This document shows positions 17,068-37,901 of a DNA stretch of 64,000 nucleotides, one piece after another. This DNA is from a virus (Duplodnaviria; Caudoviricetes). The stretch is taken from positions 1-64,000 of IMG/VR virus record IMGVR_UViG_3300037424_000485, one strand, 5' to 3'. The translations under genes and the position numbers were made by a program. The notes beneath the pieces were generated by a model, which did no database searches, was not told where the DNA came from, and saw nothing but the letters and a program-made list of their open reading frames with translations. Within the stretch, counting starts at the first letter, position 1; every line of letters starts with the position of its first letter.

Positions 17068-17069
17068 AT

Positions 17070-18522: not shown

Positions 18523-19152
18523 ATGAAACTACAACAATACCTTACAGAGGTAATGAATATCAAGAATTGGATTGAGTTGAGAGACATACTTGATAAAGAT
18601 TGTCAACCATTCATCAAAGAGTTAAAAGGTGCTAAAACTCTTCTATATAGGGGTGTAAAGGCATCTCCTGGCTTCTATGAGAAGAAAGTAACTAGAACAG
18701 ATAGGAAGCCAAGGTTATTAGATCAATCATTACACCAGAGGCTTAGTGATGCATCTAAAGAGATGTTTGGGTGGAACATTAGAGAAGAGGGTGTGTTTGC
18801 AACAAATAATGAAAGAGATGCAGATATTTGGGGCAAACCGGCAATCATATTTCCAGTAGGCAAGATAGAATATGTATGGGAGTGGAATGTCGAAGAACTA
18901 TATAACAATTATGATAAGGGATATGGATCAGGCGGGGGAGAATGGGAAGAAAGAACGTTCAAATCTCATATCATCCCAGAAATAAAGAAATATAAAACAA
19001 AGGATCTCCATATATATCTAAACTATAAATCACCAAGACAGTCTGAATGTATTGTAAAATGTCAGTCTTATTATGTTATTAATGTAGAATGGAAAGAAAC
19101 CCTGATCGGATGGTACGGTACTAAGAAATACGATAAGAGGTATACAGATTGA
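18523..19152 (+). CDS. Capsid-targeted internal protein, ART-like paralogue 1
   Basis: MKLQQYLTE; LLYRG, FATN, QSECIV. Confidence 0.6.
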   Translation: MKLQQYLTEVMNIKNWIELRDILDKDCQPFIKELKGAKTLLYRGVKASPGFYEKKVTRTDRKPRLLDQSLHQRLSDASKEMFGWNIREEGVFATNNERDADIWGKPAIIFPVGKIEYVWEWNVEELYNNYDKGYGSGGGEWEERTFKSHIIPEIKKYKTKDLHIYLNYKSPRQSECIVKCQSYYVINVEWKETLIGWYGTKKYDKRYTD

Positions 19153-19409
19153 AATTTAAACAATATATATTTGAAGTTATATTAAAGAAGGGCGAATTAT
19201 CAAAGTATAAGGATATACATGGTGTGGAAGTCACTATATTTAAAGAAGGTGGTGGCTATTATGTTGATACGAATAGTTATGATTTTGATTTTAGTGCTAA
19301 AAATATGCATGACCTCATAATTATATTAAAAGGTAGAGGATTCACAAAATATGTTGCGGGGAAAGATTTAAAATTATTAAACTACAAAAATACCTTAAAG
19401 AAGATATAG
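19149..19409 (+). CDS. Small capsid-targeted internal protein (TTG start)
   Basis: (M)KFKQYIFE N-terminus. Confidence 0.55.
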   Translation: MKFKQYIFEVILKKGELSKYKDIHGVEVTIFKEGGGYYVDTNSYDFDFSAKNMHDLIIILKGRGFTKYVAGKDLKLLNYKNTLKKI

Positions 19410-20020
19410 AAACTGATATTATTGATACGTTAAGGCGTGATTGTCAGCCTTTCATAAAAGAAATGAAAGGCACTACTGGTATACCTACAAGATATACAAG
19501 TAATAATATAAAATATCTAGAAAAATTAGAGGTTAGAAAGGATCGTAAACCTCTAGATACTCCTAGAGGTGTTCATGAGTATCTAGATAGTTTATTTAAT
19601 AAATATTTTGGATGGAAAGGAAGATCAGAAGGTTTGTTTGTATGGTCACATAAACTTACTATGCCAAGACAAACATATCTTGTATTTCCAATAGGAAAAT
19701 ATAGGTATGTATACTCAGATGATGTGCCGGATTTATTCGCAATACTTGCAGATAATATATTTTTATACACAGACAAAGAATTAGAAAAACTTACACATAT
19801 AGGTAGTAGAGGAATACCTAAAGAAAAATGGAATGATGCTGTTAAAGATAAAGAAAGACAAGAAAAACTTGAAAAGTTAGTTAAAACTTATAAATCAAAA
19901 GGGCTTAAAGAATTATCTTCAAAAAGCATGTCTCCAATTGAAGTAATGATAGATTGTAAAGAATATTATCTTAGAGATATACAGTTTTCTAATCTTATAA
20001 TGGATAGGTTGTTGCGATAA
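19376..20020 (+). CDS. Capsid-targeted internal protein, ART-like paralogue 2 (probable ATT start)
   Basis: Frame of 19463..20020 extends upstream to IKLQKYLKE...RDCQPFIKE, matching its paralogues. Confidence 0.55.
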   Translation: MKLQKYLKEDIETDIIDTLRRDCQPFIKEMKGTTGIPTRYTSNNIKYLEKLEVRKDRKPLDTPRGVHEYLDSLFNKYFGWKGRSEGLFVWSHKLTMPRQTYLVFPIGKYRYVYSDDVPDLFAILADNIFLYTDKELEKLTHIGSRGIPKEKWNDAVKDKERQEKLEKLVKTYKSKGLKELSSKSMSPIEVMIDCKEYYLRDIQFSNLIMDRLLR

Positions 20021-20022
20021 AT

Positions 20023-20640
20023 ATGAAACTACAAAAATACCTAACAGAAAAATATAGAAATGAGACTAAAGATATTGATAAGATATATGATAAGTTAAAA
20101 AAAGACTGTGCTCCTTATATATCTATGCTTAAATCAAACAACATAAAGCCGTTTATAAAAGGTATTATGAAAAATCAAAGTGGTCTTATAAAAAAAGACA
20201 CACAAGCTTATAGATCTCCAAGAGGTATGATGCCATGGGTTGCTGATGAATTTAATAGATGGTTGGAGAAGAATAAACACAATACAAGAAATGGATCTGT
20301 TATAGCCACAAGTAATAGAAAAGTTGCTGAAGATTTTGGTATATTATATTGGGTATTCCCCATTGGAGAGTTAAAATATACATGGGTAGATACAAAAGAT
20401 ATAAATGTTACAGATCCTAGAACTGGATGGTATAATTTTGCGGTAGAGGATTATCTTAATTTTACAGGCCCCGAAGATCATCGTGTACAGAAAATGAAAA
20501 AACCTTTTCCAGATTATTTCCACACTAACAAAGATATAAAAAAAGCATATAATTATTGGAATGAGATATGGTTTAGCTGTGATAAATATTATATATTAAT
20601 GATAAATGATGATGTTGAAGACATAATGAGCAGGTTATAA
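20023..20640 (+). CDS. Capsid-targeted internal protein, ART-like paralogue 3
   Basis: MKLQKYLTE; KDCAPYI, VIATS, FG..YWVFPIG, NEIWF. Confidence 0.6.
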   Translation: MKLQKYLTEKYRNETKDIDKIYDKLKKDCAPYISMLKSNNIKPFIKGIMKNQSGLIKKDTQAYRSPRGMMPWVADEFNRWLEKNKHNTRNGSVIATSNRKVAEDFGILYWVFPIGELKYTWVDTKDINVTDPRTGWYNFAVEDYLNFTGPEDHRVQKMKKPFPDYFHTNKDIKKAYNYWNEIWFSCDKYYILMINDDVEDIMSRL

Positions 20641-20642
20641 GA

Positions 20643-21071
20643 ATGAGATTTAATAAATACATATTAGAAGATGGCAAGATAGTAGGCCATATAGATCTAC
20701 CAGTTGACGATAAAATAACAAGGCAAGACCTATCCCTTTTAGAAAAGATACTAGATCAACTTTTTAAAAACCTTGATATAGATATTGAATTTACTAAGCA
20801 CTTTTTTGATAGGGTTAATGATCCAAGAAACAAGCAACAGATTCAATTTTCAGAGCTTCATTCTCTGTTCACAAAAACGTATGTGAAATTTGGACAACAA
20901 CTATCAAAAATGAGTGACGGAGTTCAGGGAGTTCTTGACGATATACAAGATGATATTAATATTCCTTTTGTTCTTAAATGGAATGAGAAGAGTAAAATGA
21001 TAGAGCTAGTTAATGTGACTGTAATGAGAAAAAAGAATTTTAAAACAAGGGATAGGATATTTAAAATATAA
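20643..21071 (+). CDS. Capsid-targeted internal protein of unknown function
   Basis: MRFNKYILE; DIEFTKHFFDRVNDPRN. Confidence 0.6.
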   Translation: MRFNKYILEDGKIVGHIDLPVDDKITRQDLSLLEKILDQLFKNLDIDIEFTKHFFDRVNDPRNKQQIQFSELHSLFTKTYVKFGQQLSKMSDGVQGVLDDIQDDINIPFVLKWNEKSKMIELVNVTVMRKKNFKTRDRIFKI

Positions 21072-22057
21072 TGAAAATAATACAAGAACACCGATATACT
21101 CTAAAAGAGGCTAAAGAAGAAAAAAAGAAAGAAAAAACAACTAATAAAAAGATTGTTATTCTTACTACTCGTAATACCGATGATCCAGATCCAAAGATTG
21201 TGTATTTTGAGACAGTGAAAGCATTGGTAGATATTATGGAGGAGAGGGGTATAGAATACTATGTACTTTTTACAGAAAACGCCTTCGTCACCAATGAAGA
21301 TGGTGTTATCACCATTTATAATGTTGATGATAAAAAAGGTATGGTTATATCTCCTAAAAACACTATAGTTATCAATAGAAATACTACTGGTGGTGGTCTT
21401 GGATCGTCTGGTATTACTATCCAGCTTGAGAAGAATAACTTTACATGCATTAACTCAAAAGAGTGTATTGATACATGTAGTGATAAATATAGAACATGTT
21501 TGAGACTGGCAGAGAAGGGTATACCAGTTCCAAGGACATTATTAATTCAAGATGAGTTAACCTTTGATAGACTGAAAGGAGAGATAAAATATCCTGTTGT
21601 TGTTAAAACCCTTACAGGATCACAAGGCATAGGCGTTTTTATATCAGAATCAGCTATGAATCTTAAATCTGTTCTTCAAGCAATATGGTCTATTGATGAC
21701 GGAGTAGAGGTGTTATTGCAGGATTTTATTGAAGCCGATGGTGATATAAGAGCTTGGTTCATTGAGAATGAATTAATAGCTGCAATGAAGAGAGTTAAGA
21801 TAGATGGTGATTTCAGATCTAATTTTAGTCTAGGTGGTAAGACAGAGAAAGTTATAATGACACCAGAACAACTAGCTATATGTAAAAAGGTTGTTAGGAT
21901 TGTAGATGGAAAGCTCCTTGGTATTGATCTTATGATTAATGAGAAGGGAGAACCATTTGTTTTAGAGGTTAATTCATCACCTGGAACTACAGGCATTACA
22001 GAGGCTTCAGGTGTTCCAGTAGCTGAAAAAATTGTAGACTACTTGATGTCATTATGA
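21071..22057 (+). CDS. rimK: RimK-family ATP-grasp ligase
   Basis: DKYRTCLRL, YPVVVKTLTGSQGIGV, LLQDFI, DIR, FRSNFSLGG, GIDL, LEVNSSPG. Confidence 0.85.
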   Translation: MKIIQEHRYTLKEAKEEKKKEKTTNKKIVILTTRNTDDPDPKIVYFETVKALVDIMEERGIEYYVLFTENAFVTNEDGVITIYNVDDKKGMVISPKNTIVINRNTTGGGLGSSGITIQLEKNNFTCINSKECIDTCSDKYRTCLRLAEKGIPVPRTLLIQDELTFDRLKGEIKYPVVVKTLTGSQGIGVFISESAMNLKSVLQAIWSIDDGVEVLLQDFIEADGDIRAWFIENELIAAMKRVKIDGDFRSNFSLGGKTEKVIMTPEQLAICKKVVRIVDGKLLGIDLMINEKGEPFVLEVNSSPGTTGITEASGVPVAEKIVDYLMSL

Positions 22058-22857
22058 GATTTAATCAATACATATTATCAGAGGGAAGGGGAAAACCACT
22101 AAAGAAGGCAATGGCTCTTGAATATATTAAAACACACTGCAAGAAAGCTCTTGAGGAATACTATAAAGGCCATATTATATACAGAGGTATTGATAATACG
22201 GATATAGCTTCAGCATTTGAAATAACAGGAAAATCAACAACACCTAGAAAGTCTGCAAACACCACAAATCATTATACATTATTGATAGACAACCTTCCAT
22301 CATGGAGGGGATTTCCTAAGAGAAGTCAGTCTATCATATGTAGCACGTCTAATGATAAAGCTAGTATGTACGGTGAGGTGTTTGTGGTCTTCCCTATCGA
22401 TGGTGCTAAGATAGGCATATGCCCTGAAGATGATATATTCTTTTCTTTTAAGTTTATGAAAGGCGAGACTATGAGGACTTTTAATAATTCCATTAATAAT
22501 ATAATGGAGTTAGTGAGTGGTTTGAAACTTGGGAATACGGATGCTAGTTGGGCTGTAATGATGAAGTATTTTAAAGGTATTGATGATGTAATGAAGCCAT
22601 TAAGTGCTGATGAGAGAAAAGAGATGACATCTCGCATATTTGGTGCTAAGATTGTTTTAGATGGTTATGACCCTGAAAAAGGAATTTTTGTACATCTCAA
22701 TGAAGTTATGGCCCCAAGAGAAAACAATTTTAGACTAATTCAATCTGGTGGGGTTATACCATATGATAAAGAAGTATGGATTGAAGACAAGTGTATTTTA
22801 ATTGATGAATATATGATTAAGACATCAACAAAAGAAAAAAGATTGGAACTAAAATGA
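22054..22857 (+). CDS. Capsid-targeted internal protein, ART-like paralogue 4
   Basis: MRFNQYILSE; IIYRG, IICSTS, MYG.VFVVFP, KEVWI. Confidence 0.65.
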   Translation: MRFNQYILSEGRGKPLKKAMALEYIKTHCKKALEEYYKGHIIYRGIDNTDIASAFEITGKSTTPRKSANTTNHYTLLIDNLPSWRGFPKRSQSIICSTSNDKASMYGEVFVVFPIDGAKIGICPEDDIFFSFKFMKGETMRTFNNSINNIMELVSGLKLGNTDASWAVMMKYFKGIDDVMKPLSADERKEMTSRIFGAKIVLDGYDPEKGIFVHLNEVMAPRENNFRLIQSGGVIPYDKEVWIEDKCILIDEYMIKTSTKEKRLELK

Positions 22858-23576
22858 AATACAATACATTTTTAAATGAATCTATACAAGATATTGGCAT
22901 CCTTAAAGCCGTTTTTATGGGTGGTGTTCCAGGAGGAGGAAAATCCTACGTATTAAAGAAACTTACTAATGCTAAGATAGAGCCAAGAATTGTGAATACT
23001 GATATTTGGACTGAATTTTTAAAAGTTGGTGGTGATAACCAAATATGGATGGATAATGCTGATAAAACCAAACATCTTACCAAGGCTCAGTTAACACATT
23101 ACATTAACTCTATGCTTCCTTTATGGGTAGACGGTACAAGCAATAAGGCCAGCTCTTTATTCACTAGAGAAGGGGCCTTAAAATCAGTTGGTTATGATAC
23201 CGCTATGGTATGGGTAACTACAACACTAGAAACAGCACAGAGAAGAGCTAAAGAGCGTGAAAAAGCTATTGGAAGACATGTAGACCCTAAATTCATAGAA
23301 GAGTTATGGAGCAAAGCAAATAAGATGAAAGACTACTATAAGAGCCATTTTGATGTGTTCCTTGAGGTACATAATGATGATGGCGATCTTAACGATAAAG
23401 TAGTGCTTGATGGATTTAGAAAGATGACATCGTTTTATACATCACCTATTAGGAATCCTATCGGTATTGAATTAAAAGAAAAAATGATAAAAAATGGATG
23501 GAAGTATCTTAACGATACTGATATGTATGACATTGGGGATTTAAATAAAGTAGTTTCAAACTGGTATAAACATTAA
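22854..23576 (+). CDS. Capsid-targeted P-loop kinase (zeta-toxin/AAA_33-like)
   Basis: MKYNTFLNE; Walker A GGVPGGGKS, WVDGT, RAKERE..GRHV. Confidence 0.75.
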   Translation: MKYNTFLNESIQDIGILKAVFMGGVPGGGKSYVLKKLTNAKIEPRIVNTDIWTEFLKVGGDNQIWMDNADKTKHLTKAQLTHYINSMLPLWVDGTSNKASSLFTREGALKSVGYDTAMVWVTTTLETAQRRAKEREKAIGRHVDPKFIEELWSKANKMKDYYKSHFDVFLEVHNDDGDLNDKVVLDGFRKMTSFYTSPIRNPIGIELKEKMIKNGWKYLNDTDMYDIGDLNKVVSNWYKH

Positions 23577-23585: not shown

Positions 23586-23918
23586 ATGAGCAATCTAAAA
23601 GATCATTTAAACAAGCAACAATTAACAGAGTCTAAAAGTCTGTTCGATATTATATCAACATTCTTTAATGATTTCACTGGTTTTATGTCATTCTCTATTA
23701 AGGCCAGGAAAGCCACGAAAGAGTATCAGATTAAGGTAAAAAATACTGCTGACTCTGAAGGAAATATGACAATAAATCAAGTAAATGCTCTTGTTAATGA
23801 ATATGTAAAAACCTTAGAATCTCTTGTAAAAGGTTCTAAAGTATCTAAAGGAGTTACTGACGCATTCATGGCTGATATCTATAAAGAGATAGAAGATTCA
23901 AGAAAGGGATGGACATAA
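23586..23918 (+). CDS. Hypothetical protein (variant targeting motif ..QQLTE)
   Basis: 110-aa ORF with AAGGA RBS. Confidence 0.5.
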   Translation: MSNLKDHLNKQQLTESKSLFDIISTFFNDFTGFMSFSIKARKATKEYQIKVKNTADSEGNMTINQVNALVNEYVKTLESLVKGSKVSKGVTDAFMADIYKEIEDSRKGWT

Positions 23919-24201: not shown

Positions 24202-24765
24202 ATGACTTTAGATATCAGATCACATTTACTAAGCAGGAATGTAGATTTCAGCATTGATAGGGTATATGTCAATGAAGAATTAAATACAGCTACATTTATG
24301 TTATTTAATCTAAGCTCTCAAATTGTTGGATATCAACATTACAATCCCAAGGGCCTTAAAGGTAGAAGATCGACTACCAAAAACGTTGATGTCCGTGACC
24401 TGAAATATCATTCTAGAATTACCAAAATTGATAATATTCCTATGCTTGCTGTATATGGGTTAGAGTCATTTGATTTTAATCTTCCCTATCTATTCCTTCT
24501 ACAAGGAATATTTGATTATGTTAAACTCCATAGACTAGGATTAAATGCTATAGCTGTTATTGCTAACAACCCAATTCATCTCTATAGCTGGTTGGAAATA
24601 TTACCACAGAAAAAGATAGCCATTACTGATAATGATGAAAATAATGCTGGTGATATGCTAAGTAAGTACGGTGATGATTCATACATGGTGCCTTTACTTG
24701 GCAATGATTTGGGTGATATGAGTCTATTACAGGTAAAAGAGTTTATTAGTCTTATAGATTACTAA
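24202..24765 (+). CDS. Stand-alone Toprim/primase-like protein
   Basis: IVGYQHYNP...YGLESF...LQGIFD...AITDND; canonical EG replaced by QG. Confidence 0.65.
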   Translation: MTLDIRSHLLSRNVDFSIDRVYVNEELNTATFMLFNLSSQIVGYQHYNPKGLKGRRSTTKNVDVRDLKYHSRITKIDNIPMLAVYGLESFDFNLPYLFLLQGIFDYVKLHRLGLNAIAVIANNPIHLYSWLEILPQKKIAITDNDENNAGDMLSKYGDDSYMVPLLGNDLGDMSLLQVKEFISLIDY

Positions 24766-24826: not shown

Positions 24827-24879
24827 TTTTAATTTATATAAATAATATAAAGATGTTTTAATAAAAAAAGGAGAATGAT

Positions 24880-25083
24880 ATGACCACTAAAAAAATACAC
24901 ATAGAAGATCCAATATTTGAAAAGGGAGATAAAGTTTATTTCCATGATAAAGATAAAATTCTACATGAAGATGGTATAATAACAGATCTAGAGATTCTTA
25001 CAGATTATATAGTATATACTGTTGAAGAAAAAGATAAAACATATCAATGTAGATGGCCTGATATATACATAAACAGCATATGA
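24880..25083 (+). CDS. Small SH3-like hypothetical protein
   Basis: FEKGDKVYF motif; AGGAG RBS. Confidence 0.5.
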   Translation: MTTKKIHIEDPIFEKGDKVYFHDKDKILHEDGIITDLEILTDYIVYTVEEKDKTYQCRWPDIYINSI

Positions 25084-25793
25084 AACTACAACAATATCTC
25101 ATAGAAGATAATAAAATAGAAATAATACATAGGGGCATAACAGCTGTTTATGATAACTGTATGCCGTTTATTAAAGATCTAGTAAAGGGTGGGTTTGACA
25201 ACACCCATAGACAGGATGATCTTCTATATAGTGGGAGGAATAAAACAATTCCTATGTTTAGTTCTGAGATAAGAAAAAACAGAAGACCAAAAGATATGCA
25301 ACCTTTCCGTCATGACACATATGACAGACTTTTTAATGATAAATTTGGTGTTAAGGTCAGGAGCAATTCATTATTTTGCACTGGCAATTACACAGAAGCA
25401 CTCAGTTATGGCAGCGGTCTTGCATATTTGATATTTCCTATTGGTCAGTATAAGGTTATATGGTCTGATAAGGTAAGAGATCTTTATACTGATTATATAG
25501 CAAATAAAGTATTTGAAAAATATCCTTCTATGATAGATCCAACACCACCAAGCAGAGAAGAAATAAAAAAGCTAGATCAAGAGCTTAACAAAATGATCAT
25601 ATCAACTTACCATGATGGTAAGTTGATGGGTGCTATTAGATCTGGTCATGAGATAATGTTAAGTGGTAAGGGATATATAGGATTAGATTATGATCTGTTT
25701 AGTAATCAACTTAAATTCTATATTACCAATTTCAAAACTAAAAAACCTACTCCTGAAATTCTAAATCAATTAACGGATTTATGGCCTATATGA
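25080..25793 (+). CDS. Capsid-targeted internal protein, ART-like paralogue 5
   Basis: MKLQQYLIE; LLYSG, LFCTG, YG..AYLIFPIG, HEIML. Confidence 0.6.
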   Translation: MKLQQYLIEDNKIEIIHRGITAVYDNCMPFIKDLVKGGFDNTHRQDDLLYSGRNKTIPMFSSEIRKNRRPKDMQPFRHDTYDRLFNDKFGVKVRSNSLFCTGNYTEALSYGSGLAYLIFPIGQYKVIWSDKVRDLYTDYIANKVFEKYPSMIDPTPPSREEIKKLDQELNKMIISTYHDGKLMGAIRSGHEIMLSGKGYIGLDYDLFSNQLKFYITNFKTKKPTPEILNQLTDLWPI

Positions 25794-26620
25794 AACTAAA
25801 ACAATATTTAAAAGAAAGCAGGAGTGATTCAATAGAAAAATTTGAGGCTATCGATTATATAAAAAAGAATTGTAAAAAAGCTCTTGATCGTGTTAAAAAA
25901 GGAGATATTATATATAGGGGTATGAGACAAGATAGCGACAACACATATCTTTTCATAGATCCCACCAAAGGAAATCCTAGGGTATCTGCAAACACATCAA
26001 ATCATACCACTCTTATAATAGATAACTCGCCAAAATGGAAGAGCTACCCTAAAAGAAGTCGATCTATCATATGTAGCACAGATAAAGCATATACTCACGG
26101 ATTTGGTAATATGACCTATATAGTTTTTCCATATGATAGTTGTACTTATGGTGTATGTCCCACTACAGATATATGGGGTTCATTTATGAAAACTACTAAA
26201 GCATATATTGATCAATTTAATGAGCGTTTAGATTTTACTATTAAAATGTCTATTGATGAGAAGAGTATTGTTACAGATAAGTCATGGGATTCCCTAAAAT
26301 CTTTTCTTAAAATATCATCTGACAGCATTAATTTAGAATTTAATAGAATAAGAAATATGGATAGCGGTATACAGAGTGATGATGCTATAAGAAAGTATAT
26401 TTCAGGTATTACTTTTGATGGTGTAATTAAATTATATCTTATCAATGCCTTCGATAAAAAAGAAAAAGTTGATATGCTTCAATTTGTTATAGATATTATA
26501 GACCCTGTAAAAAATAACTTCTCTAATAAATACAAAAATATACAATCTGAAGTATGGATTGGCGGTGCTCCATGTATTCTTGTTGATGCAGATTATAAAT
26601 CACTGATAGATATTATATAA
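25790..26620 (+). CDS. Capsid-targeted internal protein, ART-like paralogue 6
   Basis: MKLKQYLKE (ATGA overlap at 25790); IIYRG, IICST, FG..YIVFP, QSEVWI. Confidence 0.65.
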   Translation: MKLKQYLKESRSDSIEKFEAIDYIKKNCKKALDRVKKGDIIYRGMRQDSDNTYLFIDPTKGNPRVSANTSNHTTLIIDNSPKWKSYPKRSRSIICSTDKAYTHGFGNMTYIVFPYDSCTYGVCPTTDIWGSFMKTTKAYIDQFNERLDFTIKMSIDEKSIVTDKSWDSLKSFLKISSDSINLEFNRIRNMDSGIQSDDAIRKYISGITFDGVIKLYLINAFDKKEKVDMLQFVIDIIDPVKNNFSNKYKNIQSEVWIGGAPCILVDADYKSLIDII

Positions 26621-26749: not shown

Positions 26750-27406
26750 ATGAAATTTAAACAATATTTGATAGAAGATTTATTAACAGAGTATTATAAT
26801 GGTGATTATTTTTTAGATTGTAATGAAAATGTCACACTACCAGCAGAGATAATACCTAAAAATACTGTAAAGGCATATAAGCTATTTCGTACAAAAGGCA
26901 ATAAAATTTATCCATTATATGTTGATGCTAATACTCCTATTCCTGTAGGTAAATGGGTGGAAGCAGAAGTAGGGCCAATGACAGATAAAGGAAAGGTCAA
27001 ATCCAAACTAGGCCCACTGGCATTTAGACCTGGGTTTCATTCTGGTGATATGCCTATGGCTACACATATTGGTGGATTGATTAAAGGATCTATTAAGCCA
27101 GCATATAGGCCAGACAATCAAGTTTGGGCTGAAGTATTGGTTCCTGCTGATGTTGATTGGCAGGAAGAAGCTAATAAAAGAGCACAGAAAACAAAAGATG
27201 GAAAAATTATATCACGGACAGCTCAGATATCAGATCAAATACCAACAGGTGGTTATTACAAATATAAAACAAATTCTAATATGACAGGATCGTGGCTGAT
27301 TAGTGGTGCTATGAAAGTGCTTAAAATATTATCTGATGAAGAGGTTGAAAAAATAAATAAAAAATTTGGTGTTTCTGACCTACCAAGACTATCAGCTTTA
27401 AAGTAA
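26750..27406 (+). CDS. Capsid-targeted internal protein of unknown function
   Basis: MKFKQYLIE; AYKLF...IYPLY...LAFRPGFH. Confidence 0.6.
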   Translation: MKFKQYLIEDLLTEYYNGDYFLDCNENVTLPAEIIPKNTVKAYKLFRTKGNKIYPLYVDANTPIPVGKWVEAEVGPMTDKGKVKSKLGPLAFRPGFHSGDMPMATHIGGLIKGSIKPAYRPDNQVWAEVLVPADVDWQEEANKRAQKTKDGKIISRTAQISDQIPTGGYYKYKTNSNMTGSWLISGAMKVLKILSDEEVEKINKKFGVSDLPRLSALK

Positions 27407-27426: not shown

Positions 27427-28182
27427 ATGAAATTTAAACAATACTTAAAAGAAGACTTCTTTGATAATGGTGGAGCACCAGAAGCTTTTAAAAAACTAGA
27501 AGATAGGTCTATAGCCAAAGCATATACATATCTATTTCTCACATTAAAGAAGCCAATAGGTATATTACCAACCCTTCTAAAATACCTCAAAAAACACCTT
27601 CATACGCCTCTAGACAATCTATCTTATAAGTCAGGAGAGCAAGGCAATCTAGCCGTGTATTCCCCATCTATGGACTCTGTACAGTTAAATTTAACAGCAA
27701 TGAAAAAATTATCATCACCTAGAGGTGTTAAGGTTACCAATCTACAAGACCGTTTGGCAAATGCAAAAGAAAATCTTAAAAAATGGGAAAAGTTTCAGAG
27801 CAAAGCGAAATCACCAAAAGATGTAAAGACAGGCAGAGGTGGTTATAGTAAAACATCATCAATTATTATCCATTTAGAAGACAAGATAAGAAGGGGAGAT
27901 ATTCCAGTACCCTATAATTCATTTGACTATGCTAAAGACTCAGAACAAGTTCTTGAGATGATAATAGTCCATGAGTTGGGGCATAGATATTGGCACAAGA
28001 AGCTTGGAGGAAGTGATTCAAAAATACATGTTTTTTACAACCAAAAACAATTCCCATCTGAATACTCAAAGATTAACATTACTGAGTATTTTGCGGAACT
28101 ATATTCATTAACAAAGGTTGGTCTGATTGACAAAGCTGATATATCTAATGAGGTTAAAACATATATGAAGAGTTTGAAATGA
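27427..28182 (+). CDS. Capsid-targeted zincin-like metallopeptidase
   Basis: MKFKQYLKE; HELGH followed by EYFAE. Confidence 0.65.
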   Translation: MKFKQYLKEDFFDNGGAPEAFKKLEDRSIAKAYTYLFLTLKKPIGILPTLLKYLKKHLHTPLDNLSYKSGEQGNLAVYSPSMDSVQLNLTAMKKLSSPRGVKVTNLQDRLANAKENLKKWEKFQSKAKSPKDVKTGRGGYSKTSSIIIHLEDKIRRGDIPVPYNSFDYAKDSEQVLEMIIVHELGHRYWHKKLGGSDSKIHVFYNQKQFPSEYSKINITEYFAELYSLTKVGLIDKADISNEVKTYMKSLK

Positions 28183-28826
28183 AATTTAAACAATATCTCA
28201 CAGAGATGGAAGATGCTGGCACTGGTGGTAAAGCCTTTGAGAAGGTTTTTATGGGTGCTTGTGATCTTATTGGCCTTCAGTATGAGAAAAATGGTGTTAA
28301 TGGTAGAGGTTGGGATATAAAACCTATTGGTGATGGCTGGACAAGAATTATTAGTAGTATGGATGTAAATATCAAGGTTGCTAATACCAAATGGCTTTTT
28401 AGTTCCACTGAGCTAACAAATATTGTGCCATGGGATGGTATTGATGATAACTATGATGAAAAAAGTGTTATCAATAGGATAAAAGACATATTTAAAAGAA
28501 TTGGTCTACCTCAGACAGTATTCTTAAAGCCAAAAACAGATGCCATTCAAGATAAGATAACAGATGCTGTTAAAGGTAAAGATATCATAGAGTTAGAGAA
28601 GATATTTGTTAGCAATAATTTCTATGCTGAGAAGTTAGGAAGAAATTACAATATAAGAATATCTGTACATGATGATGGTAAAATAGGATCTATAGCAATT
28701 GATAAAAGTGGTAAGGTGTTCATGAGATCTGAGAGGCCCAGAAAGCTAGGTGGTTCTGTATCTGTTACATTCAGAACACCAACACCAAAATTAAACAAGA
28801 CAGAAAGACCTATTAAGTTGAGATAA
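28179..28826 (+). CDS. Capsid-targeted protein, possible PD-(D/E)xK nuclease fold
   Basis: MKFKQYLTE; AFE...WDI...VNIK. Confidence 0.45.
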   Translation: MKFKQYLTEMEDAGTGGKAFEKVFMGACDLIGLQYEKNGVNGRGWDIKPIGDGWTRIISSMDVNIKVANTKWLFSSTELTNIVPWDGIDDNYDEKSVINRIKDIFKRIGLPQTVFLKPKTDAIQDKITDAVKGKDIIELEKIFVSNNFYAEKLGRNYNIRISVHDDGKIGSIAIDKSGKVFMRSERPRKLGGSVSVTFRTPTPKLNKTERPIKLR

Positions 28827-28830: not shown

Positions 28831-29472
28831 ATGAAATTTAAACAATATATCATAGAAATGGCAATGCCGAGAGCACAGGATATTGCTAAAGTATATTACC
28901 ACGGCACAAGTACCGATAAAGCAGCACAAGGTATCTTGAAAAATGGTATCCAACCGCCTGATCTTGTAAATAAAAAAGGCCAATTAACACCTGTTGAAGG
29001 TAAGACATATCTAACATCTGACTTATCATATGCTACAATGTATGCTGTAGGTGCAGATATGGTTGGTAGTAAACTTCCTGATAGTTTTATTAAAAATGGG
29101 GAAGAATATGCTTATATATTTGTTATTGATGGCAGAGAATTAAGAGACATACAGCCGGATGAAGATGCAGTGGGGGAAATGGTAAGTAAAAAATTACCAT
29201 ATTGGCTTTATAACATGGCAGAGAAGCACCTAACAGAGAACCAAATGAAAAAAGTGCTTTGGGGTGAATATGCATATTGGGCGCAAGCTGGTAAGAAGTT
29301 AAACAAGATAATGACATCGGCCCAAAAGTTAGAGATTATTGATCTAGGTGCAAGCATAGCCAACACTGGCAGTCTAAGAATTAAAGAAGCCTGGAAGCTA
29401 CATAAAAACGATAATATAAAACTTAAAGAAGATGGATCTAATTTCTTTAAAGTTGCTGAGAGAATAAAATGA
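28831..29472 (+). CDS. Capsid-targeted ADP-ribosyltransferase-like protein (H-Y-E class)
   Basis: MKFKQYIIE; YYHGTS, TYLTSDLSYATMYA, QPDED. Confidence 0.65.
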   Translation: MKFKQYIIEMAMPRAQDIAKVYYHGTSTDKAAQGILKNGIQPPDLVNKKGQLTPVEGKTYLTSDLSYATMYAVGADMVGSKLPDSFIKNGEEYAYIFVIDGRELRDIQPDEDAVGEMVSKKLPYWLYNMAEKHLTENQMKKVLWGEYAYWAQAGKKLNKIMTSAQKLEIIDLGASIANTGSLRIKEAWKLHKNDNIKLKEDGSNFFKVAERIK

Positions 29473-29513
29473 AATTTCCTTGACATACCCTGTAAAAATG
29501 TTATAGTAGATAT

Positions 29514-30102: not shown

Positions 30103-30653
30103 ATGGATATTAACAAAACGGTAAATAAATATCTAGTAGAGAAGTATATCAATCTCCTATCTAATGATACGGATCTAAAGCAGAGATATAAAGATGATGT
30201 ATATGCATTGCTACAAGATGCATACGCCTCTATTGGTGGTGTTAAAGGTAGTGGATTCTCATCACCTGAAGATATGGTCAGATCAATTCCATTCTGGAAG
30301 TTAGGATTTGTAGATGGGAGATTGGTTGCAGTTGTTATGTATAAGTTTGTAGATGGTGAACGTAAACTAGTTGCTATCGGTGGAACACATGATACAGATG
30401 GTAAAAAAGACTGAAAGAAATTGTAGCTATAGAATTTACCCGATCTTATGCTGAGATAAGCGATCCTCTACTTGGATGGCTGGCAAGAACACATCCAGAA
30501 ATTATTAAAAAATATAGAGTTCCTGTTGAAATAGCAATGAAAATAATTAAAAGAGAGATTCATCCTATTGATTATTATTTCTATTCTCGTAATATAGGTG
30601 GAGATCAACACACCAAAATGCTAATTGGTAAAATACCGCCCGGTTATAAATAA
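30103..30653 (+). pseudogene. Internal-protein-like gene split by a frameshift at the A6 run 30403-30408
   Basis: ORF stops at 30414; the -1 frame continues RLKEIVAIEFTRSYAEISDP...RNIGGDQHTKMLIGK to TAA 30651-30653. Confidence 0.55.
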
Positions 30654-30735
30654 AAATCTGTTTGTATTATAATAAATTGTTTAGAGCTGCTATTGGTATT
30701 GAATATTATATTATTAGTGGAGTATGAAAACAATA

Positions 30736-31587: not shown

Positions 31588-31677
31588 GACTTAATCCTTT
31601 AAAGTAGTCTGTTGTTTAGAAACCTACCAATTACTCTAATAATTGGTAGGTTTTGTTTTTGTCTAAATATATTTATA
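31569..31677. promoter_or_regulatory. HNH leader cassette: sense late promoter, 14-bp hairpin, antisense late promoter
   Basis: TATTTATA 31670-31677, stem 31620-31653, plus-strand TATAAATA 31569-31576. Confidence 0.65.
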
Positions 31678-31681
31678 AAAG

Positions 31682-31710
31682 TTGACAAAAAAACAATAAT
31701 ATATTATTAT
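31682..31710 (+). promoter_or_regulatory. Sigma70-type promoter TTGACA-17-TATTAT
   Basis: Direct match upstream of 31738. Confidence 0.7.
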
Positions 31711-31737
31711 TAAAATAATATTTCAATAGGAGATCAA

Positions 31738-32778: not shown

Positions 32779-33650
32779 TAGAAAAGACTAAAATTTTTAA
32801 TAAACAATGTACCAAATGTAAAGAAATTAAGGATGTTGGTGAATTCTATAAAAAGAAAAATGGTTATTATGACTCTTGGTGTGATGTATGTAGAAAACAA
32901 AAAAGAAATTATATAGAACTAAATACACTAGGTAGTAAACAATGCCAAATATGTAAAGAATTTAAGGATATTAAAGAGTATGGAAGAGCGAACACATGTA
33001 AAGATGGTTATAGAAATATTTGTAAAGAATGTATAGGTTTATATAAAAAACAATATCATATCAGAAATAAAAAACAGATACATGAAAAAAAGAAACAGTA
33101 TAGTATAGATAACAAGAAAAGATTATCAAAGTATAAAAAGTTATACTACTCTTCTCATGCTTCATACGAAACATATGCTCATCAATTAACAATAGATGAA
33201 GAGCCTAGATTAGCTGATGATGGCGTGTCACTTGAAGTTAGATGCAAATATTGTGGTAAATATTTTAAACCTAAAAATTTACAAATAATACATCGAATTA
33301 ATAGTATTGACGGGAAGGGAGAGGGAGAAAACAATTTATATTGTTCAGATAATTGCAAAAATTCATGTTCTATATACAATAGAAGTAAATACCCTAAAGG
33401 TTTCAAACCAGATACATCAAGAGAAGTACAACCGGCTTTAAGAAAGCTTGTATTGGAAAGAGATAATTGGACATGTCAGAAATGTGGTAATTCTACCGAT
33501 GATTACCCACTACACTGTCATCACTTTGAAGGTATTGAGATCAATCCTGTTGAGAGTGCTGATGTTGATAATTGTGTTACACTATGCAAAAAATGCCATA
33601 AAGCAGTACATAAACAAGATGGATGTAATATGAAAAGGGAAAGATGTTAG
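32775..33650 (+). CDS. HNH homing endonuclease (family copy 3)
   Basis: Two CxxC ribbons, EEPRLADDGVSLEVRCKYC, shared HNH. Confidence 0.88.
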   Translation: MIEKTKIFNKQCTKCKEIKDVGEFYKKKNGYYDSWCDVCRKQKRNYIELNTLGSKQCQICKEFKDIKEYGRANTCKDGYRNICKECIGLYKKQYHIRNKKQIHEKKKQYSIDNKKRLSKYKKLYYSSHASYETYAHQLTIDEEPRLADDGVSLEVRCKYCGKYFKPKNLQIIHRINSIDGKGEGENNLYCSDNCKNSCSIYNRSKYPKGFKPDTSREVQPALRKLVLERDNWTCQKCGNSTDDYPLHCHHFEGIEINPVESADVDNCVTLCKKCHKAVHKQDGCNMKRERC

Positions 33651-33688
33651 ATTTTCTTAACTATATATACAAATAAGGATCTAGTACA

Positions 33689-34195
33689 ATGCAATATTCA
33701 TTCGACAACAAAAATTTTCACAACACACCATATGATGCTTTTTTATCTCACAAAAGTTATATTATTTATTGTAGTAATGGCGAACAATATAATATTAATT
33801 ATTTTTTAAGAGACTTTGCTAGATGGTGCGCCTTACAAGTCTTACACTTATGGGATGCTCCCGATATTGTTGTTGAATATCTTAAAACAGGTAATGAAGA
33901 TTTAAGAAAAAAAGCTAAACACGATGCTTTAGCAGTTGCTAATGCTGCTGCTTATGCTGCTTATGCTGCTAATGATGCTGCTAATGCTGATGCTTATGCT
34001 GCTTATGCTGCTAATGCTGCTGCTTATGCTGCTTATGCTGCTAATGATGCTGCTAATGCTGCTGCTTATGCTGCTTATGCTGCTAATGATGCTGCTAATG
34101 CTGCTAATGATGTTAAAGAAAAACAAAGAAATAAATTTAACGAATTTATTAATAATATAATTGACTATATTCCAAAAGAGCTGTTTGAAATGTGA
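33689..34195 (+). CDS. Protein with Ala-rich AAYAAYAAN repeats and PEELF-type tail
   Basis: RDFARWCALQVLHLW; low-complexity 33929-34110; ends YIPKELFEM. Confidence 0.6.
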   Translation: MQYSFDNKNFHNTPYDAFLSHKSYIIYCSNGEQYNINYFLRDFARWCALQVLHLWDAPDIVVEYLKTGNEDLRKKAKHDALAVANAAAYAAYAANDAANADAYAAYAANAAAYAAYAANDAANAAAYAAYAANDAANAANDVKEKQRNKFNEFINNIIDYIPKELFEM

Positions 34196-34202
34196 TATTT
34201 TC

Positions 34203-34231
34203 TTGACTAGATCCTGGAAAAGTTTTATAAT
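34203..34231 (+). promoter_or_regulatory. Sigma70-type promoter TTGACT-17-TATAAT
   Basis: Direct match upstream of cca. Confidence 0.75.
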
Positions 34232-34267: not shown

Positions 34268-35716
34268 ATGAAATTTATACAGTATATAAATGAATCCTCA
34301 GATGTAGATATCAAGAAAAGATGGGCTGATTATATCAAATCTGATCTCATGATTAAGAATGGTGTGGATATCCTTAGAAAAATTAACTCTAAAGGATATG
34401 ATGCTTTTATTGTTGGCGGTGCTGTTCGTGATCTCATCCTTGGTGATAAACCTCATGATATAGATATATCTACCAATTGTCCTATGGATGTTCTTGAGAA
34501 GATGTTCAAGACATATGATATCGGCAAATCCAAAACATTTGGTATTGTTGCTGTTAATCAAGGCGGTAATACTTATGAGATAGCTCAATTTAGAAATGAG
34601 AGTGATTATTCAAACGGTAGACACCCTGATACTATCAAAATAGTTAAAGATTTTAAATCAGATGCTGCACGTAGGGATTTAACCATCAATGCAATGGCTG
34701 TAGATGCTGATGGTAATATTATAGATCATTTCAACGGTAAGAGAGCTGTTTTCGATAAGGTAATCAAAACTGTTGGTAATCCTAATGATAGATTCCAAGA
34801 AGACCACCTCAGAATGATGAGGGCTGTACGTTTTTCTGGCAAGTTGGGGTTTGACATTGATGTTGAAACTAAAGATTCTATCAAGAAAAACAAAGACCTT
34901 ATCAAGAACATCTCTATTGAGAGAGTTAAAGATGAGCTTATTAAGATGGCATCCCAAGAAGGTAATAAATTTGCAGATAGCATTTTGATGTTGGATGAAG
35001 TTGGCATTCTTGATATCATCCTTCCAGAGATTACTAAATTAAAGCAGTTCAAAGAGACTGAGAGGCACCATCCTGAAGCATATGAGAATGGGGGAGGTAC
35101 TGTATTCGATCATACCATTGCAGCTCTTAGAATGAATAAATTGATAGATCCTCTTGTTAATTTGGGTGTGTTGTTTCATGACATTGGCAAGCAATCTACA
35201 TATAAATGGGATTCTGATAAAGATTCTCATTCTTACCATGGACATGCTAAAGAGGGTAAAGACCTTATTGATATTATAGCTAAGAGGCTGAAGTTATCAA
35301 ATAAAGAGTATGATTCTATCTTGTTTTCTATGGTAAATCACATGAGTCTGTTTAATGGCATTGATATGAAGCCATCGAAAATTATAAAACTGGTTAAAGA
35401 TGAAAACTGGAATATCTTAGTTCAAGTAAGTTACTGTGATGACAGTTGCAGGACTAACCTTTTTGACAAAAAAACATTTGACAGCACCATTGATAATATG
35501 ATTTCTATTGCTAATAAATGGGGTGATAAGATCTCTGGGACTACTGTTAAAGTTATCGATGGTAAACAGGTTATGAAATTAACTGGTATAAAACAAGGGA
35601 AACAGATTGGAGAAATAATCAGTACGGTTACTGATATTGTTCTCAGAAATGGTATTAAAAATCAAAAAGATATAAATACACTTATAATGAAAGTCTTTAA
35701 TGACATGGAGAAATAA
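34268..35716 (+). CDS. cca: CCA tRNA nucleotidyltransferase with HD domain and capsid-targeting-like N-terminus
   Basis: VGGAVRDL..DIDI, ARRDLTINAMA, EDHLRMMRAVRF, DHT...FHDIGK; starts MKFIQYINE. Confidence 0.9.
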   Translation: MKFIQYINESSDVDIKKRWADYIKSDLMIKNGVDILRKINSKGYDAFIVGGAVRDLILGDKPHDIDISTNCPMDVLEKMFKTYDIGKSKTFGIVAVNQGGNTYEIAQFRNESDYSNGRHPDTIKIVKDFKSDAARRDLTINAMAVDADGNIIDHFNGKRAVFDKVIKTVGNPNDRFQEDHLRMMRAVRFSGKLGFDIDVETKDSIKKNKDLIKNISIERVKDELIKMASQEGNKFADSILMLDEVGILDIILPEITKLKQFKETERHHPEAYENGGGTVFDHTIAALRMNKLIDPLVNLGVLFHDIGKQSTYKWDSDKDSHSYHGHAKEGKDLIDIIAKRLKLSNKEYDSILFSMVNHMSLFNGIDMKPSKIIKLVKDENWNILVQVSYCDDSCRTNLFDKKTFDSTIDNMISIANKWGDKISGTTVKVIDGKQVMKLTGIKQGKQIGEIISTVTDIVLRNGIKNQKDINTLIMKVFNDMEK

Positions 35717-35717
35717 A

Positions 35718-36092
35718 ATGAAAGATTTAGTAGATAAATATTTGGTTAGTGAGGCCGCTGCTGATAAAGCAGCTGCAAAAGAGTTAGAACTGTATATTTC
35801 TAATGATAGTACACTTTACAGACAACAAACAGTTACTATTCAGAAGAACCTTATGACTAAGAAAGCACAAGGTAAATATGATTCTGAGATGTCTGTGAAG
35901 CTATGGATGTACTTGATGGATGCTGGTGCAAAGAAGTATGCAAAAGACCATGCAAATCCTAACGACTGGAATACCATCTTTACAAAAGAAACTCGTATCG
36001 AAGCAGCAAAAATGTTTAGAGATGAGTTTGAGGAAAATGCAGAAAATGGTGAATATGATAAATATATTCCTAAAAAGTATCAAAATAAATAA
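35718..36092 (+). CDS. Hypothetical protein, variant targeting motif MKDLVDKYLVSE
   Basis: GGAG RBS before 35718. Confidence 0.55.
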   Translation: MKDLVDKYLVSEAAADKAAAKELELYISNDSTLYRQQTVTIQKNLMTKKAQGKYDSEMSVKLWMYLMDAGAKKYAKDHANPNDWNTIFTKETRIEAAKMFRDEFEENAENGEYDKYIPKKYQNK

Positions 36093-36105: not shown

Positions 36106-36149
36106 ATTATAAACCCTTTTATTATAAATAAGTATAAAGGGTTTATAAT
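36106..36149. promoter_or_regulatory. 14-bp hairpin whose loop contains a late promoter (36123-36130)
   Basis: ATTATAAACCCTTT/AAAGGGTTTATAAT with TATAAATA in the loop. Confidence 0.5.
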
Positions 36150-36173
36150 TTAACAAAAAGGAATATAGCTACT

Positions 36174-36356
36174 ATGAAACTAAAGAATTTTATATCAGAG
36201 GCACAATTCCGTAAGGGTCAGAATGTAACTATTATCGATACTGGTGAGGCCGGATGTATAGTAAAGATTGGTTCAAATACCCAAATGGTTCAATTCTCTG
36301 ATGGTTCTACTAGACCTTTCGGAAATCATGAGCTTAAAGATCGTATGGTAAGCTAA
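36174..36356 (+). CDS. Small capsid-targeted SH3-like protein
   Basis: MKLKNFISE; FRKGQNV. Confidence 0.55.
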   Translation: MKLKNFISEAQFRKGQNVTIIDTGEAGCIVKIGSNTQMVQFSDGSTRPFGNHELKDRMVS

Positions 36357-36490
36357 AAGAAATGATATATAATTAAATGCTGGCAGTAGCAAGATATCAA
36401 AAGATGCTGTTAAATCAGGAAGTCTTAAAGGCTATGAAAATACTGTAAAAGGCATCATAGATTACTACTATAAATATCTGGATAAATAAT

Positions 36491-36805
36491 ATGAGTTCAC
36501 TAGACAAGATAACATCTATACTGGAAGAAATAGACCTTATACACTCAAGACTTAATGAAAGTATATCTCCAAAAGAAAAACGAGAAATTAATGATATAAT
36601 CAATAAGAAGAAAAATGGAGATTTTATATTCAATAGTATAGATGTACATGTGAAGTCTAGCAGCAATGATGTAGTTTTATCATATAGCAGTGATGGAAAG
36701 ACGGATGATCTAACACTATCCCTTACTGATATAGCAGATGCACGTGGTCTTGAGTTTAAATTCACCACTAGTGGTAAGACCAATAATTTTAAAATACTAA
36801 CATAA
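36491..36805 (+). CDS. Hypothetical protein
   Basis: Late promoter TATAAATA 36469-36476 upstream. Confidence 0.5.
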   Translation: MSSLDKITSILEEIDLIHSRLNESISPKEKREINDIINKKKNGDFIFNSIDVHVKSSSNDVVLSYSSDGKTDDLTLSLTDIADARGLEFKFTTSGKTNNFKILT

Positions 36806-36810
36806 TAAAC

Positions 36811-37590
36811 ATGATTCCAAAAAGTAGATTAACTATACGAAAGATTATGCCAGAATTGGTTAAGATCCTAGACCAATATAATTGGGATGTGGATGATGCT
36901 AAATTTGCTATGATTCTGTCAATGGTTTTATATCCTGCGGATAATGTAAGATTTACACCAAAAGAAAGCGAACACTCTATTGAAATATATGTCAGTGGTA
37001 TTGTACAAACCTTCTTGAATAACTCCATAAGCCAGCAAAAAGATCAAATAATAAATAATCTCTTGGATGAGAAAAAGAACCCATTATATGTTGCTCTTGG
37101 AGTAATCCTTGACAAAGCATTTGAATGGCGTAAATATCTAGAGAAACTTAACATTCAAAGACCTATGCTTTTTGATACTGATCATACAATTCAATTTCAA
37201 TTAGATATGAATATTGATGATTATATCGAAATGGCTGTAAATGAGACACTAGAATACGATTACACGGACATTTACGATATATATGGTGTCTTCCTACCTA
37301 AAATGGAAAAAACCGTTAGAAGTGAAGTAGGTGACGTTATTGAGGGCAGTGATTTTGATCAAGCACCAGAGCCTGAAAAAAAGAATAATGAGAAGCCAGA
37401 GTCAGAGAATTTTGATTATATCCAATGGAAGACAGATCGTAAGAAATCAAGAGAGCAGGAAGACAAGTTAAAAGTACATGATGACTTAAATCCTGGTGAG
37501 GATATAGTACCTGAAAATCCAGACCAGGAATCTAAAGTAGAAACCCCACCAAATAAAGCTAAGAAAAGAAAACTAAAAAAGAAGAAATAA
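36811..37590 (+). CDS. Hypothetical protein with acidic/basic C-terminus
   Basis: 259-aa co-oriented ORF. Confidence 0.55.
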   Translation: MIPKSRLTIRKIMPELVKILDQYNWDVDDAKFAMILSMVLYPADNVRFTPKESEHSIEIYVSGIVQTFLNNSISQQKDQIINNLLDEKKNPLYVALGVILDKAFEWRKYLEKLNIQRPMLFDTDHTIQFQLDMNIDDYIEMAVNETLEYDYTDIYDIYGVFLPKMEKTVRSEVGDVIEGSDFDQAPEPEKKNNEKPESENFDYIQWKTDRKKSREQEDKLKVHDDLNPGEDIVPENPDQESKVETPPNKAKKRKLKKKK

Positions 37591-37901
37591 TGAAAGATTT
37601 AGTAGAAAAATATTTAAATAGTGTAGATATAAATGAAGCAAGGACAAATCCAGATGACTATCTTAAAAACTTTATAGTTATTGGAAAGCAAGTTTTTCTA
37701 GCTATAGATGTTATTACAGCTGAAAATAATGGATGGAGAGCAGAAGTTGGTATATCACAGAGTGGTATGGTTATTGAAGATCCAAAATATACTTTTAAAT
37801 CTAGTTGGTTTAGCACTTTTGAACAAGCAGAGAAGGCGGCCTTGGGAATGGCAAAAGATATGAAAGTAAATTGGAATCCAAAACCATATGGTAGACGGTA
37901 A
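37590..37901 (+). CDS. Hypothetical protein, variant motif MKDLVEKYL
   Basis: TAATG coupling; N-terminus like 35718. Confidence 0.5.
   Translation: MKDLVEKYLNSVDINEARTNPDDYLKNFIVIGKQVFLAIDVITAENNGWRAEVGISQSGMVIEDPKYTFKSSWFSTFEQAEKAALGMAKDMKVNWNPKPYGRR

Follow-up and report, generated by a model that had tools for sequence, protein, structure and literature searches.

This account concerns a stretch of phage DNA (Caudoviricetes; IMG/VR record IMGVR_UViG_3300037424_000485) and a short peptide with which many of the encoded proteins begin. The window analyzed is the first 64 kb of the 204,431-bp record, and the whole-genome scans mentioned below cover all 204,431 bp. A first-pass annotation of the window had listed 16 open reading frames (ORFs) opening with M-[KR]-[LFY]-x-[QKNT]-[YF]-[LI]-x(1-2)-E, and had taken this peptide, here called the tag, for a capsid-targeting sequence (CTS) of the kind carried by the internal proteins (IPs) of phage T4. 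Translation recovers the motif at all 16 of the listed starts. Every one of the tags has F, L or Y at position 3 together with Y or F at position 6, and 15 of them end in [LI]-x-E, the remaining one, at 22054, having [LI]-x-x-E. The tagged ORFs range from 60 to 482 codons and all lie on the plus strand, as do the lysis cassette, the RimK gene, the variant-tagged ORFs and the promoters described below.

The number of tags is far above chance. When all start codons of the window were scanned in its six frames, the same 16 tags came back and no 17th, and a start-codon scan of the whole genome produced zero additional ones. With the methionine dropped from the pattern, the six-frame translation of the genome gave 22 matches, 16 of them the tags and 6 others. 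A position-specific scoring matrix built from the tags scores them at 11.5-26, the 99.9th percentile of the background being 4.5; outside the window it found one variant, MSEN-KFIKYLLE, at genome position 141315 on the minus strand. The motif scan of the rest of the genome, which had been proposed as a check, has therefore been made, and the strict tag occurs only in the window. A more relaxed version of the motif, the core [hydrophobic]-x-x-[YFH]-[LI]-x(1-2)-E, lies within the first 18 residues of 19 of the 323 predicted proteins, as compared with 0.97% of internal 18-residue windows, and 17 of these 19 proteins map to 18.5-56.5 kb. The tag is absent from internal gene positions and is confined to the extreme N-termini of about ten unrelated families. 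There are 16 tagged genes, or up to about 21 when variants are included; none of the sampled relatives has a larger set.

The first block of tagged genes (18523-23576) starts just after the M15 peptidase gene of a probable lysis cassette. Its first member, at 18523..19152, encodes a 209-residue protein of what we call family A, with the tag MKLQQYLTE. The gene at 19149..19409 follows, in which a TTG codon, read as M, precedes KFKQYIFE; no relatives were found for its 86-residue product. Two more members of family A come next, one with the tag KLQKYLKE after an ATT codon (19376..20020) and one of 205 residues starting MKLQKYLTE (20023..20640). The gene at 20643..21071 (MRFNKYILE, 142 residues, phrog_23027) is coupled to that of a RimK-type ATP-grasp ligase (21071..22057; PF08443), which starts MKIIQEHRYTLKE and lacks a canonical tag. 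The block ends with a 267-residue protein of family B (22054..22857, MRFNQYILSE) and a 240-residue P-loop kinase (22854..23576, MKYNTFLNE). ATG is the start codon in 14 of the 16 tagged genes. The TTG of 19149 is preceded by a good AAGAGG Shine-Dalgarno sequence; at 19376, which overlaps the 3' end of the TTG-started gene by 34 nucleotides, there is no in-frame ATG, GTG or TTG from the upstream stop to the tag, and this gene either uses a non-canonical ATT start or has lost its start codon very recently.

The second block lies behind a T4-type late promoter motif at 24837..24844. It comprises MKLQQYLIE (25080..25793, 237 residues, family A), MKLKQYLKE (25790..26620, 276 residues, family B), MKFKQYLIE (26750..27406, 218 residues, phrog_30118), MKFKQYLKE (27427..28182, 251 residues, a zincin-like motif), MKFKQYLTE (28179..28826, 215 residues, a nuclease-like fold) and MKFKQYIIE (28831..29472, 213 residues, a candidate fold of the ADP-ribosyltransferase (ART) superfamily). 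Further downstream are the gene of a predicted CCA-adding enzyme (34268..35716, MKFIQYINE, 482 residues), a 60-residue ORF (gene 36174, MKLKNFISE; 36123..36356 with its late promoter motif at 36123), and an isolated 158-residue one (gene 56508, MKFNNFLKE; 56476..56984 with a late promoter motif at 56476 and a Shine-Dalgarno sequence). The first-pass annotation had also named four variant tags. Two of them fit the core motif, namely MDINKTVNKYLVE (30103..30414, 103 residues) and the longer MKDLVDKYLVSE of the 124-residue product of gene 35718, which follows a late promoter motif at 35671 (35671..36092). The other two are weaker and only possible variants: MSNLKDHLNK...LTE (23586..23918, 110 residues), which is like the MSRFNNHLTE form found in relatives, and MKDLVEKYLNSV...INE (37590..37901, 103 residues). 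The 35718 and 37590 proteins are otherwise dissimilar and have a longer N-terminus in common, MKDLV[DE]KYL-x-S; containing the KYL-x-S-E core as in 22054, it may be a second form of the tag.

The tag codons themselves are synonymously variable, with eight codons used at the L/I position, TAC as well as TAT, and GAA as well as GAG, while the residue classes at positions 2, 3, 6, 7 and 9 are constant. The conservation is therefore at the protein level, and selection acts on the peptide. This free variation is one reason why we regard as highly improbable an explanation in which the shared start is a leftover of cassette duplication or recombination at the 5' segment, or of an A/U-rich initiation region, with the peptide as a passenger, even though four neighboring tagged genes have 17 identical nucleotides (ATGAAATTTAAACAATA) in common, many junctions of the array are ATGA overlaps with poor Shine-Dalgarno sequences, six tagged members are paralogues, and recombination at conserved motifs is reportedly on record for the hyperplastic regions of T4-type phages. 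The passenger explanation also has to face the retention of the tag on CCA-adding enzymes to 47% identity and on homologues of the 28179 protein to about 40%, the selective basicity of the tagged proteins, and the presence of tagged homologues in a virion, all of which are described below.

The proteins behind the tag had been described as unrelated, and this is correct for ten of them, which resemble neither one another nor the rest. The other six form two families in an all-against-all BLAST comparison, family A (18523, 19376, 20023 and 25080) and family B (22054 and 25790), and PHROG profiles connect the two. Three enzymes recognized earlier in the array are borne out by Pfam matches above the cut-offs. 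The 34268 product is, by its PolyA_pol head (PF01743, 106 bits) and RNA-binding domain (PF12627, 50 bits), a CCA-adding enzyme or tRNA nucleotidyltransferase, its HD domain scoring 21.1 bits, just below the Pfam cut-off of 22. The 22854 product is, by its matches to PF13671 (37.3 bits, cut-off 27) and PF06414 (35.2 bits, cut-off 22.3) and its Walker A motif GGVPGGGKS, a zeta-toxin/AAA_33 P-loop kinase, and the untagged ligase at 21071 matches the RimK ATP-grasp profile PF08443 at 140 bits.

For an ART-like nature of families A and B the picture is mixed. They have conserved YRG, RSxSIIC and E-x-W motifs, which together give an R / S-x-S / E pattern; the structural scores, with Z of 3.5-5.6, are weak. 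The structure model of 22054 has a predicted local distance difference test (pLDDT) score of 89. Foldseek found no significant match for it in the PDB, and the best VIA-align hits were Arr (Z 5.6, root-mean-square deviation (rmsd) 4.2, 92 residues aligned) and diphtheria toxin (Z 5.0); ART folds are numerous at Z 3-5, where they are interspersed with domains that bind cyclic nucleotides (cNMP-binding domains). Matches to ART-PolyVal are likewise weak (E 0.04-0.4). The ART assignment of the two families is a weak one, and we treat it as a lead. A fold of the ART superfamily is also a candidate for 28831, whose Atlas model reaches a template-modeling score of 0.61 to a viral cluster annotated as DarT/PARP, with further rows of DUF3990, Pertussis_S1, RES and Arr. 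This protein has a YHGT motif, and no profile matched it, Pfam at relaxed thresholds included.

The 28179 protein appears to be PD-(D/E)xK nuclease-like. In its AlphaFold2 model (pLDDT 90), residues 1-12 fall below pLDDT 50 and lie outside the fold, and the top VIA-align rows are all nucleases: I-Ssp6803I (Z 6.0, rmsd 4.0, 117 aligned), HinP1I (5.5), NhoI (5.3) and Hjc (5.0). E21, D46, N64 and K66 are invariant, an N replacing the usual second acid. Foldseek gave no significant PDB match for this model, and a search of the ESM Atlas was uninformative, the Atlas model having a pLDDT of 0.44. In 27427, inspection of the sequence shows HELGH with a downstream EYFAE, a candidate zincin motif in a protein with no significant Pfam, PHROG or PDB match. 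PDB sequence searches with 22854, 27427 and 26750 returned nothing, and for eight tagged proteins no helpful Pfam hit emerged when the thresholds were relaxed.

Most of these proteins are basic. After removal of the tag, 15 of the 16 predicted mature proteins have an isoelectric point (pI) of 8.1-9.5; among the other 307 predicted proteins the share with a pI above 8 is only 39% (Fisher p = 1.3e-5), and nine of the ten independent tagged families are basic. A basic pI would also suit a counter-ion or DNA-condensing role, and 19149, 36174 and 20643 are small proteins without an enzyme signature. It could be asked whether the tagged proteins enter the prohead and then act or stay there, as assembly enzymes, as proteins that condense DNA or as auxiliary parts of the core or scaffold, and are never injected, in which case the idea of an effector arsenal would be wrong. 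We consider this unlikely: the substrates of a CCA-adding enzyme, a P-loop kinase and an ATP-grasp ligase exist in cells and not in capsids, and the nearest precedents, the T4 IPs and Alt, are ejected (PMC5694885, PMC3012670).

The phage has the head machinery that a T4-style internal-protein system would use. Its major capsid protein gp23 is recognized by PF07068 (E 2e-101), and no cultured phage has a capsid protein more than 36% identical to it, which indicates a deep-branching T4-type phage. A 303-residue coiled-coil ORF lies between gp23 and the protease, at the position of gp22, and looks like a scaffold gene. The prohead protease is of the S77 (gp21) type and matches PF03420 in two halves (55 and 37 bits) with an intein between them. 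The protease ORF has 574 residues and lies on the minus strand at genome positions 198796-200520 (locus L002, 19-1743); its intein-like insert begins with a Cys after GHPP, contains the LAGLIDADG-like LGIYLAEGN and ends ...TGN|C, and the closest relative, G001, has its protease split in the same way in a 566-residue frame. The protease N-terminus, MMKKLKLITE, is reminiscent of MNEPQLLIE in T4 gp21. A complex prediction with two copies of the scaffold-like protein and residues 1-40 of the 26750 product gave no verdict either way.

It is at the N-termini that the comparison with T4 becomes specific. In the T4 record IPII and IPIII both start MKTYQEFIAE, followed by A, so that the CTS given earlier for IPIII is confirmed and is found in IPII as well; T4 gp21, gp22 and gp24 also carry [LI]-x-E near residue 9-10. 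The CTS of T4 IPI, IPII and IPIII is removed by the prohead protease gp21, as reported by Mullaney and Black in 1996 and reviewed since (PMC3012670, PMC9026906). The first ten residues of the T4 CTS suffice for packaging; by mutagenesis, residues 4 and 7 matter most for targeting, whereas residues 8 and 10 are needed for processing (PMC9026906). Positions 3, 6, 7 and 9 of the tag correspond to positions 4, 7, 8 and 10 of the T4 CTS, with the same spacing and one residue nearer to the Met. Like the T4 CTS, the tag is an extreme N-terminal peptide of about ten residues with an M-K start, in which two aromatic or hydrophobic positions three apart are followed by [LI]-x-E; unlike it, the tag has nine residues, one fewer, with the consensus MKFKQYLxE in place of MKTYQEFIAE.

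The likeness extends to the proteins and genes around the peptide. Diverse internal proteins of the T-even phages have only the CTS in common, a portable CTS being already in the literature, and the T4 internal proteins are basic and in contact with the DNA (PMC3012670, PMC9026906); here too the tag is carried by otherwise unrelated, mostly basic proteins. As in T4, there is a gp23, a scaffold-like gene in the gp22 position and a gp21-type protease, and the array adjoins an endolysin gene, just as in T4 the lysozyme gene e is immediately followed by ipIII and ipII. The differences are of scale and content. There are 16-21 tagged genes here as against three T4 IPs; recognizable enzymes are among the cargo, whereas the T4 IPs are small inhibitor or DNA-binding proteins; and the cargo has no homology to IPI-III.

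We consider it probable, judging from these sequence features, that the tag is this lineage's version of the CTS and that the array is an expanded T4-style internal-protein system. The reading of the first-pass annotation is thereby upheld in part, on circumstantial evidence: the T4-type head, the match to the CTS positions, the unrelated folds, the basic pI, and the virion of the jumbo phage Atu_ph07 discussed below. In such a system the tagged proteins would be made mostly from T4-type late promoters in tightly coupled operons. Through tag residues 3 and 6, both aromatic or hydrophobic, they would bind to the scaffolding core while the prohead assembles, and the gp21-type S77 protease would then cleave [LI]-x-E behind its Glu. 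Once released, these mostly basic proteins would remain in the head with the DNA and would probably be ejected into the next host. The cargo would include the two weakly ART-like families, the putative ART-fold protein, the zeta/AAA_33 kinase, the putative zincin, the PD-(D/E)xK-like protein, the CCA-adding enzyme, several small proteins and probably the RimK ligase. Docking, cleavage and the action of the cargo in this phage are steps that we infer, and ejection into the host along with the DNA is suggested by analogy with T4.

Enzymes carried in heads are not without precedent. T4 Alt is a head-carried ADP-ribosyltransferase which gp21 cleaves at ITE-6 and LTE-619 and which acts on the host at injection (PMC5694885). 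The tagged candidate ART-fold protein (28831) and the weakly ART-like families A and B may be comparable to Alt; the ART assignment of A and B comes from weak structural scores and the R / S-x-S / E pattern, and no sequence match to Alt came up, though none was looked for. In the phiKZ-like giant phages SPN3US and 201phi2-1, too, many head-internal or ejected proteins, including enzymes, are loaded by means of N-terminal propeptides, which are cut at x-x-E motifs by a protease homologous to gp21. Those propeptides, unlike the tag, are mostly longer than 100 residues, share no short peptide and have the motif [SAG]-x-E (PMC5694885).

The tag is not peculiar to this genome. An exact-pattern scan of IMG/VR found it in 21 loci, and a rescan shows arrays of up to eight tagged ORFs; a degenerate pattern gave 7, 2, 1, 8 and 1 matches in five source records and the reversed-pattern control gave 0. 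All three long records of relatives contain gp23 and the S77 protease. The cargo that keeps the tag in relatives includes the kinase (five contigs), the CCA-adding enzyme, the 28179 protein and family B. Among the best 120 CCA-enzyme homologues in a collection of 5.8 billion proteins, which are 47-100% identical, 88 have the strict tag and 96 the core motif, and the exceptions are mostly truncated or mis-started; among CCA enzymes of cultured phages, none aligns across the first 14 or more residues. The tag is present on nearly all of the 53 homologues found for the 28179 protein, down to about 40% identity. Two of them begin exactly at the mature domain without a tag, which indicates that the tag is a separable N-terminal module. 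A close cultured relative did not come to light: at the nucleotide level, 8 kb of the array had no megablast match among GenBank phages.

The relatives also bear on the RimK ligase, which sits within the array here and in G001 and G004. Its position might suggest that the tag is recognized by some partner other than the head, such as this ligase, the ubiquitin-like conjugation proteins of the phage, a chaperone or some degradation machinery, and serves modification or timed turnover. RimK acts on C-termini, though, and the tag is N-terminal. The RimK homologues of two relatives moreover start MSRFNNHLTE and MSKFNDFIFE; since they carry the tag themselves, RimK is probably cargo and not the reader of the tag. 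Tags are also present in G002 and G003, incomplete records in which no RimK was found, and we have rejected RimK as the reader. As the tag always ends in the [LI]-x-E of gp21-type proteases and co-occurs with gp23 and the S77 protease in every long record, recognition by another partner is in our judgment highly improbable.

A link to an actual virion is provided by Atu_ph07, a jumbo phage of Agrobacterium whose gp21 and gp23 are of the T4 type (PMC6102473). It has homologues of family B in a tandem array, gp53-gp63, whose N-termini read M-[KR]-[WL]-x-Q-L-x-E. The annotated genes were matched to the published gp numbers by exact molecular weight, and all 11 of these proteins are present in the table of virion proteins obtained by electrospray ionization tandem mass spectrometry (PMC6102473, Table S5), as are gp43, which starts MRLIDLLE, and gp47. 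The paper makes no comment on shared N-termini or processing (PMC6102473). The Atu_ph07 array consists mostly of one paralogue family, unlike the many unrelated folds found here. In gp53 (778 residues) a family-B domain is fused to a zeta-toxin domain, and in our window a family-B gene and the zeta-type kinase gene are adjacent and both tagged (22054-23576); fused in one phage and neighbors in the other, the two domains may act together. Another homologue, ORF404 of the Ralstonia phage RsoM2USA, starts MTTFKEYLTE; the published proteomics of that phage, with ten gel bands only, is too shallow to be of use here.

Transcription of the array fits a late, head-associated role in part. Most tagged genes had been placed behind late promoters, and the T4-type late promoter motif TATAAATA is indeed present at all four sites named, 16742, 24837, 36123 and 56476, as well as at 35671. 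The first of these, before the lysis cassette and the first tag block, has the extended form TTTATATAAATA (16742..16749), which is also seen upstream of the gp22-position scaffold-like gene. The part of the claim that does not hold is the CCA gene, which has no TATAAATA directly upstream and is preceded instead by a sigma70-like promoter matching 11/12 positions (TTGACT, 17 nucleotides, TATAAT; 34203..34231).

This promoter is one of several observations that weigh against a capsid-targeting role. T4 ipII and ipIII are likewise behind sigma70-type hexamers, and for this reason the promoter of the CCA gene does not disqualify its product. Single promoter calls are in any case soft, because TATAAATA is enriched only about 1.5-fold genome-wide in this AT-rich DNA. 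The array is split by a stretch at 29.5-34.2 kb with sigma70-like promoters, two HNH genes and a homing-endonuclease-like gene. Paralogy inflates the count of tags, 6 of the 16 tagged proteins belonging to two related families, and one tagged member, the 56508 product, is acidic. The cleavage site of gp23 cannot be aligned unambiguously to that of T4, the candidates being I-S-E|A and N-N-E|A. The Atu_ph07 data, finally, speak for presence in the virion, not for cleavage or for a location inside the head, and the tag of that phage is one residue shorter than the one found here and has no Tyr.

The principle of packaging by a short N-terminal peptide is known from T4, and what this array contributes is scale, cargo and predictive value; the mechanism as such is not new. 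The new elements are the variant form of the tag, the size of the set, cargo that includes enzymes (above all a CCA-adding enzyme whose tagged form is widely conserved) and a connection to the unexplained virion-protein arrays of jumbo phages. We know of no case in which a CCA-adding enzyme, a zeta-type kinase or a RimK-type ligase has been described as phage head cargo. If the tag works as its T4 counterpart does, the packaged and injected proteome of an uncultivated phage group could be read from genome sequence, giving a ready list of first-strike proteins with candidate roles in anti-defense or host take-over. Protein delivery by phage heads would also gain a second CTS variant of natural origin, and tandem arrays of virion proteins in jumbo phages such as Atu_ph07 would be explained. 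One may go further, in a proposal that we put forward tentatively and with considerable doubt: that a large uncultivated T4-type clade has an injectome readable from sequence, in which every protein starting M-[KR]-[FL]-x-x-Y-[LI]-x-E would enter the head, lose its tag to the prohead protease and reach the host along with the DNA. The core kit would be the CCA enzyme, tagged in at least 88 distinct protein clusters, with PD-(D/E)xK-like, zeta-type kinase and ART-like proteins, and these might act on host RNA, DNA and protein, by repair or by modification, ahead of any phage gene expression, for example by undoing tRNA-targeting defenses.

Some features around the tagged genes deserve a brief description. 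The probable lysis cassette (16753..18460), which lies behind the promoter at 16742 and has homologues in the same order in L019/L005, encodes two small membrane proteins, a lipoprotein and, last, the M15 peptidase. The lipoprotein has 174 residues, the signal LLCLSCMAC and a C-terminal transmembrane segment, and is unimolecular-spanin-like.

The segment that interrupts the array (29480-34231) has near-consensus sigma70-type promoters at 29480, 31682 and 34203, and its genes include a UPF0227 esterase, an HNH gene on the minus strand (30736-31587), a homing-endonuclease-like gene at 31738 and a second HNH gene at 32763; it looks like an early-gene region or a mobile insertion. At its left edge the first-pass annotation had seen a relic start, ATGAAATTTCCTTGA, left by a lost member of the array. 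The site (29469..29507) overlaps a sigma70-like promoter for the esterase gene at 29514, consisting of TTGACA, 16 nucleotides and TATAGT with a TG extension, and the supposed relic coincides in part with the -35 hexamer. Only 9 nucleotides are common with the tags, and ATGAAATTT is found seven times outside the tags genome-wide. We have rejected the relic, which is better explained as part of this near-consensus promoter or as a chance match.

A PHROG search of ten further ORFs matched only two, both untagged: the homing-endonuclease-like gene at 31738, and a 187-residue ORF in the array region (24202-24765), the central part of which resembles a phage DNA primase (phrog_849, E 1.5e-18). The ORF at 33689-34195 contains an Ala/Asn/Tyr-rich repeat (AAYAAYAAN...) and has the C-terminal sequence IPKELFEM, which may be a clamp- or partner-binding tail.

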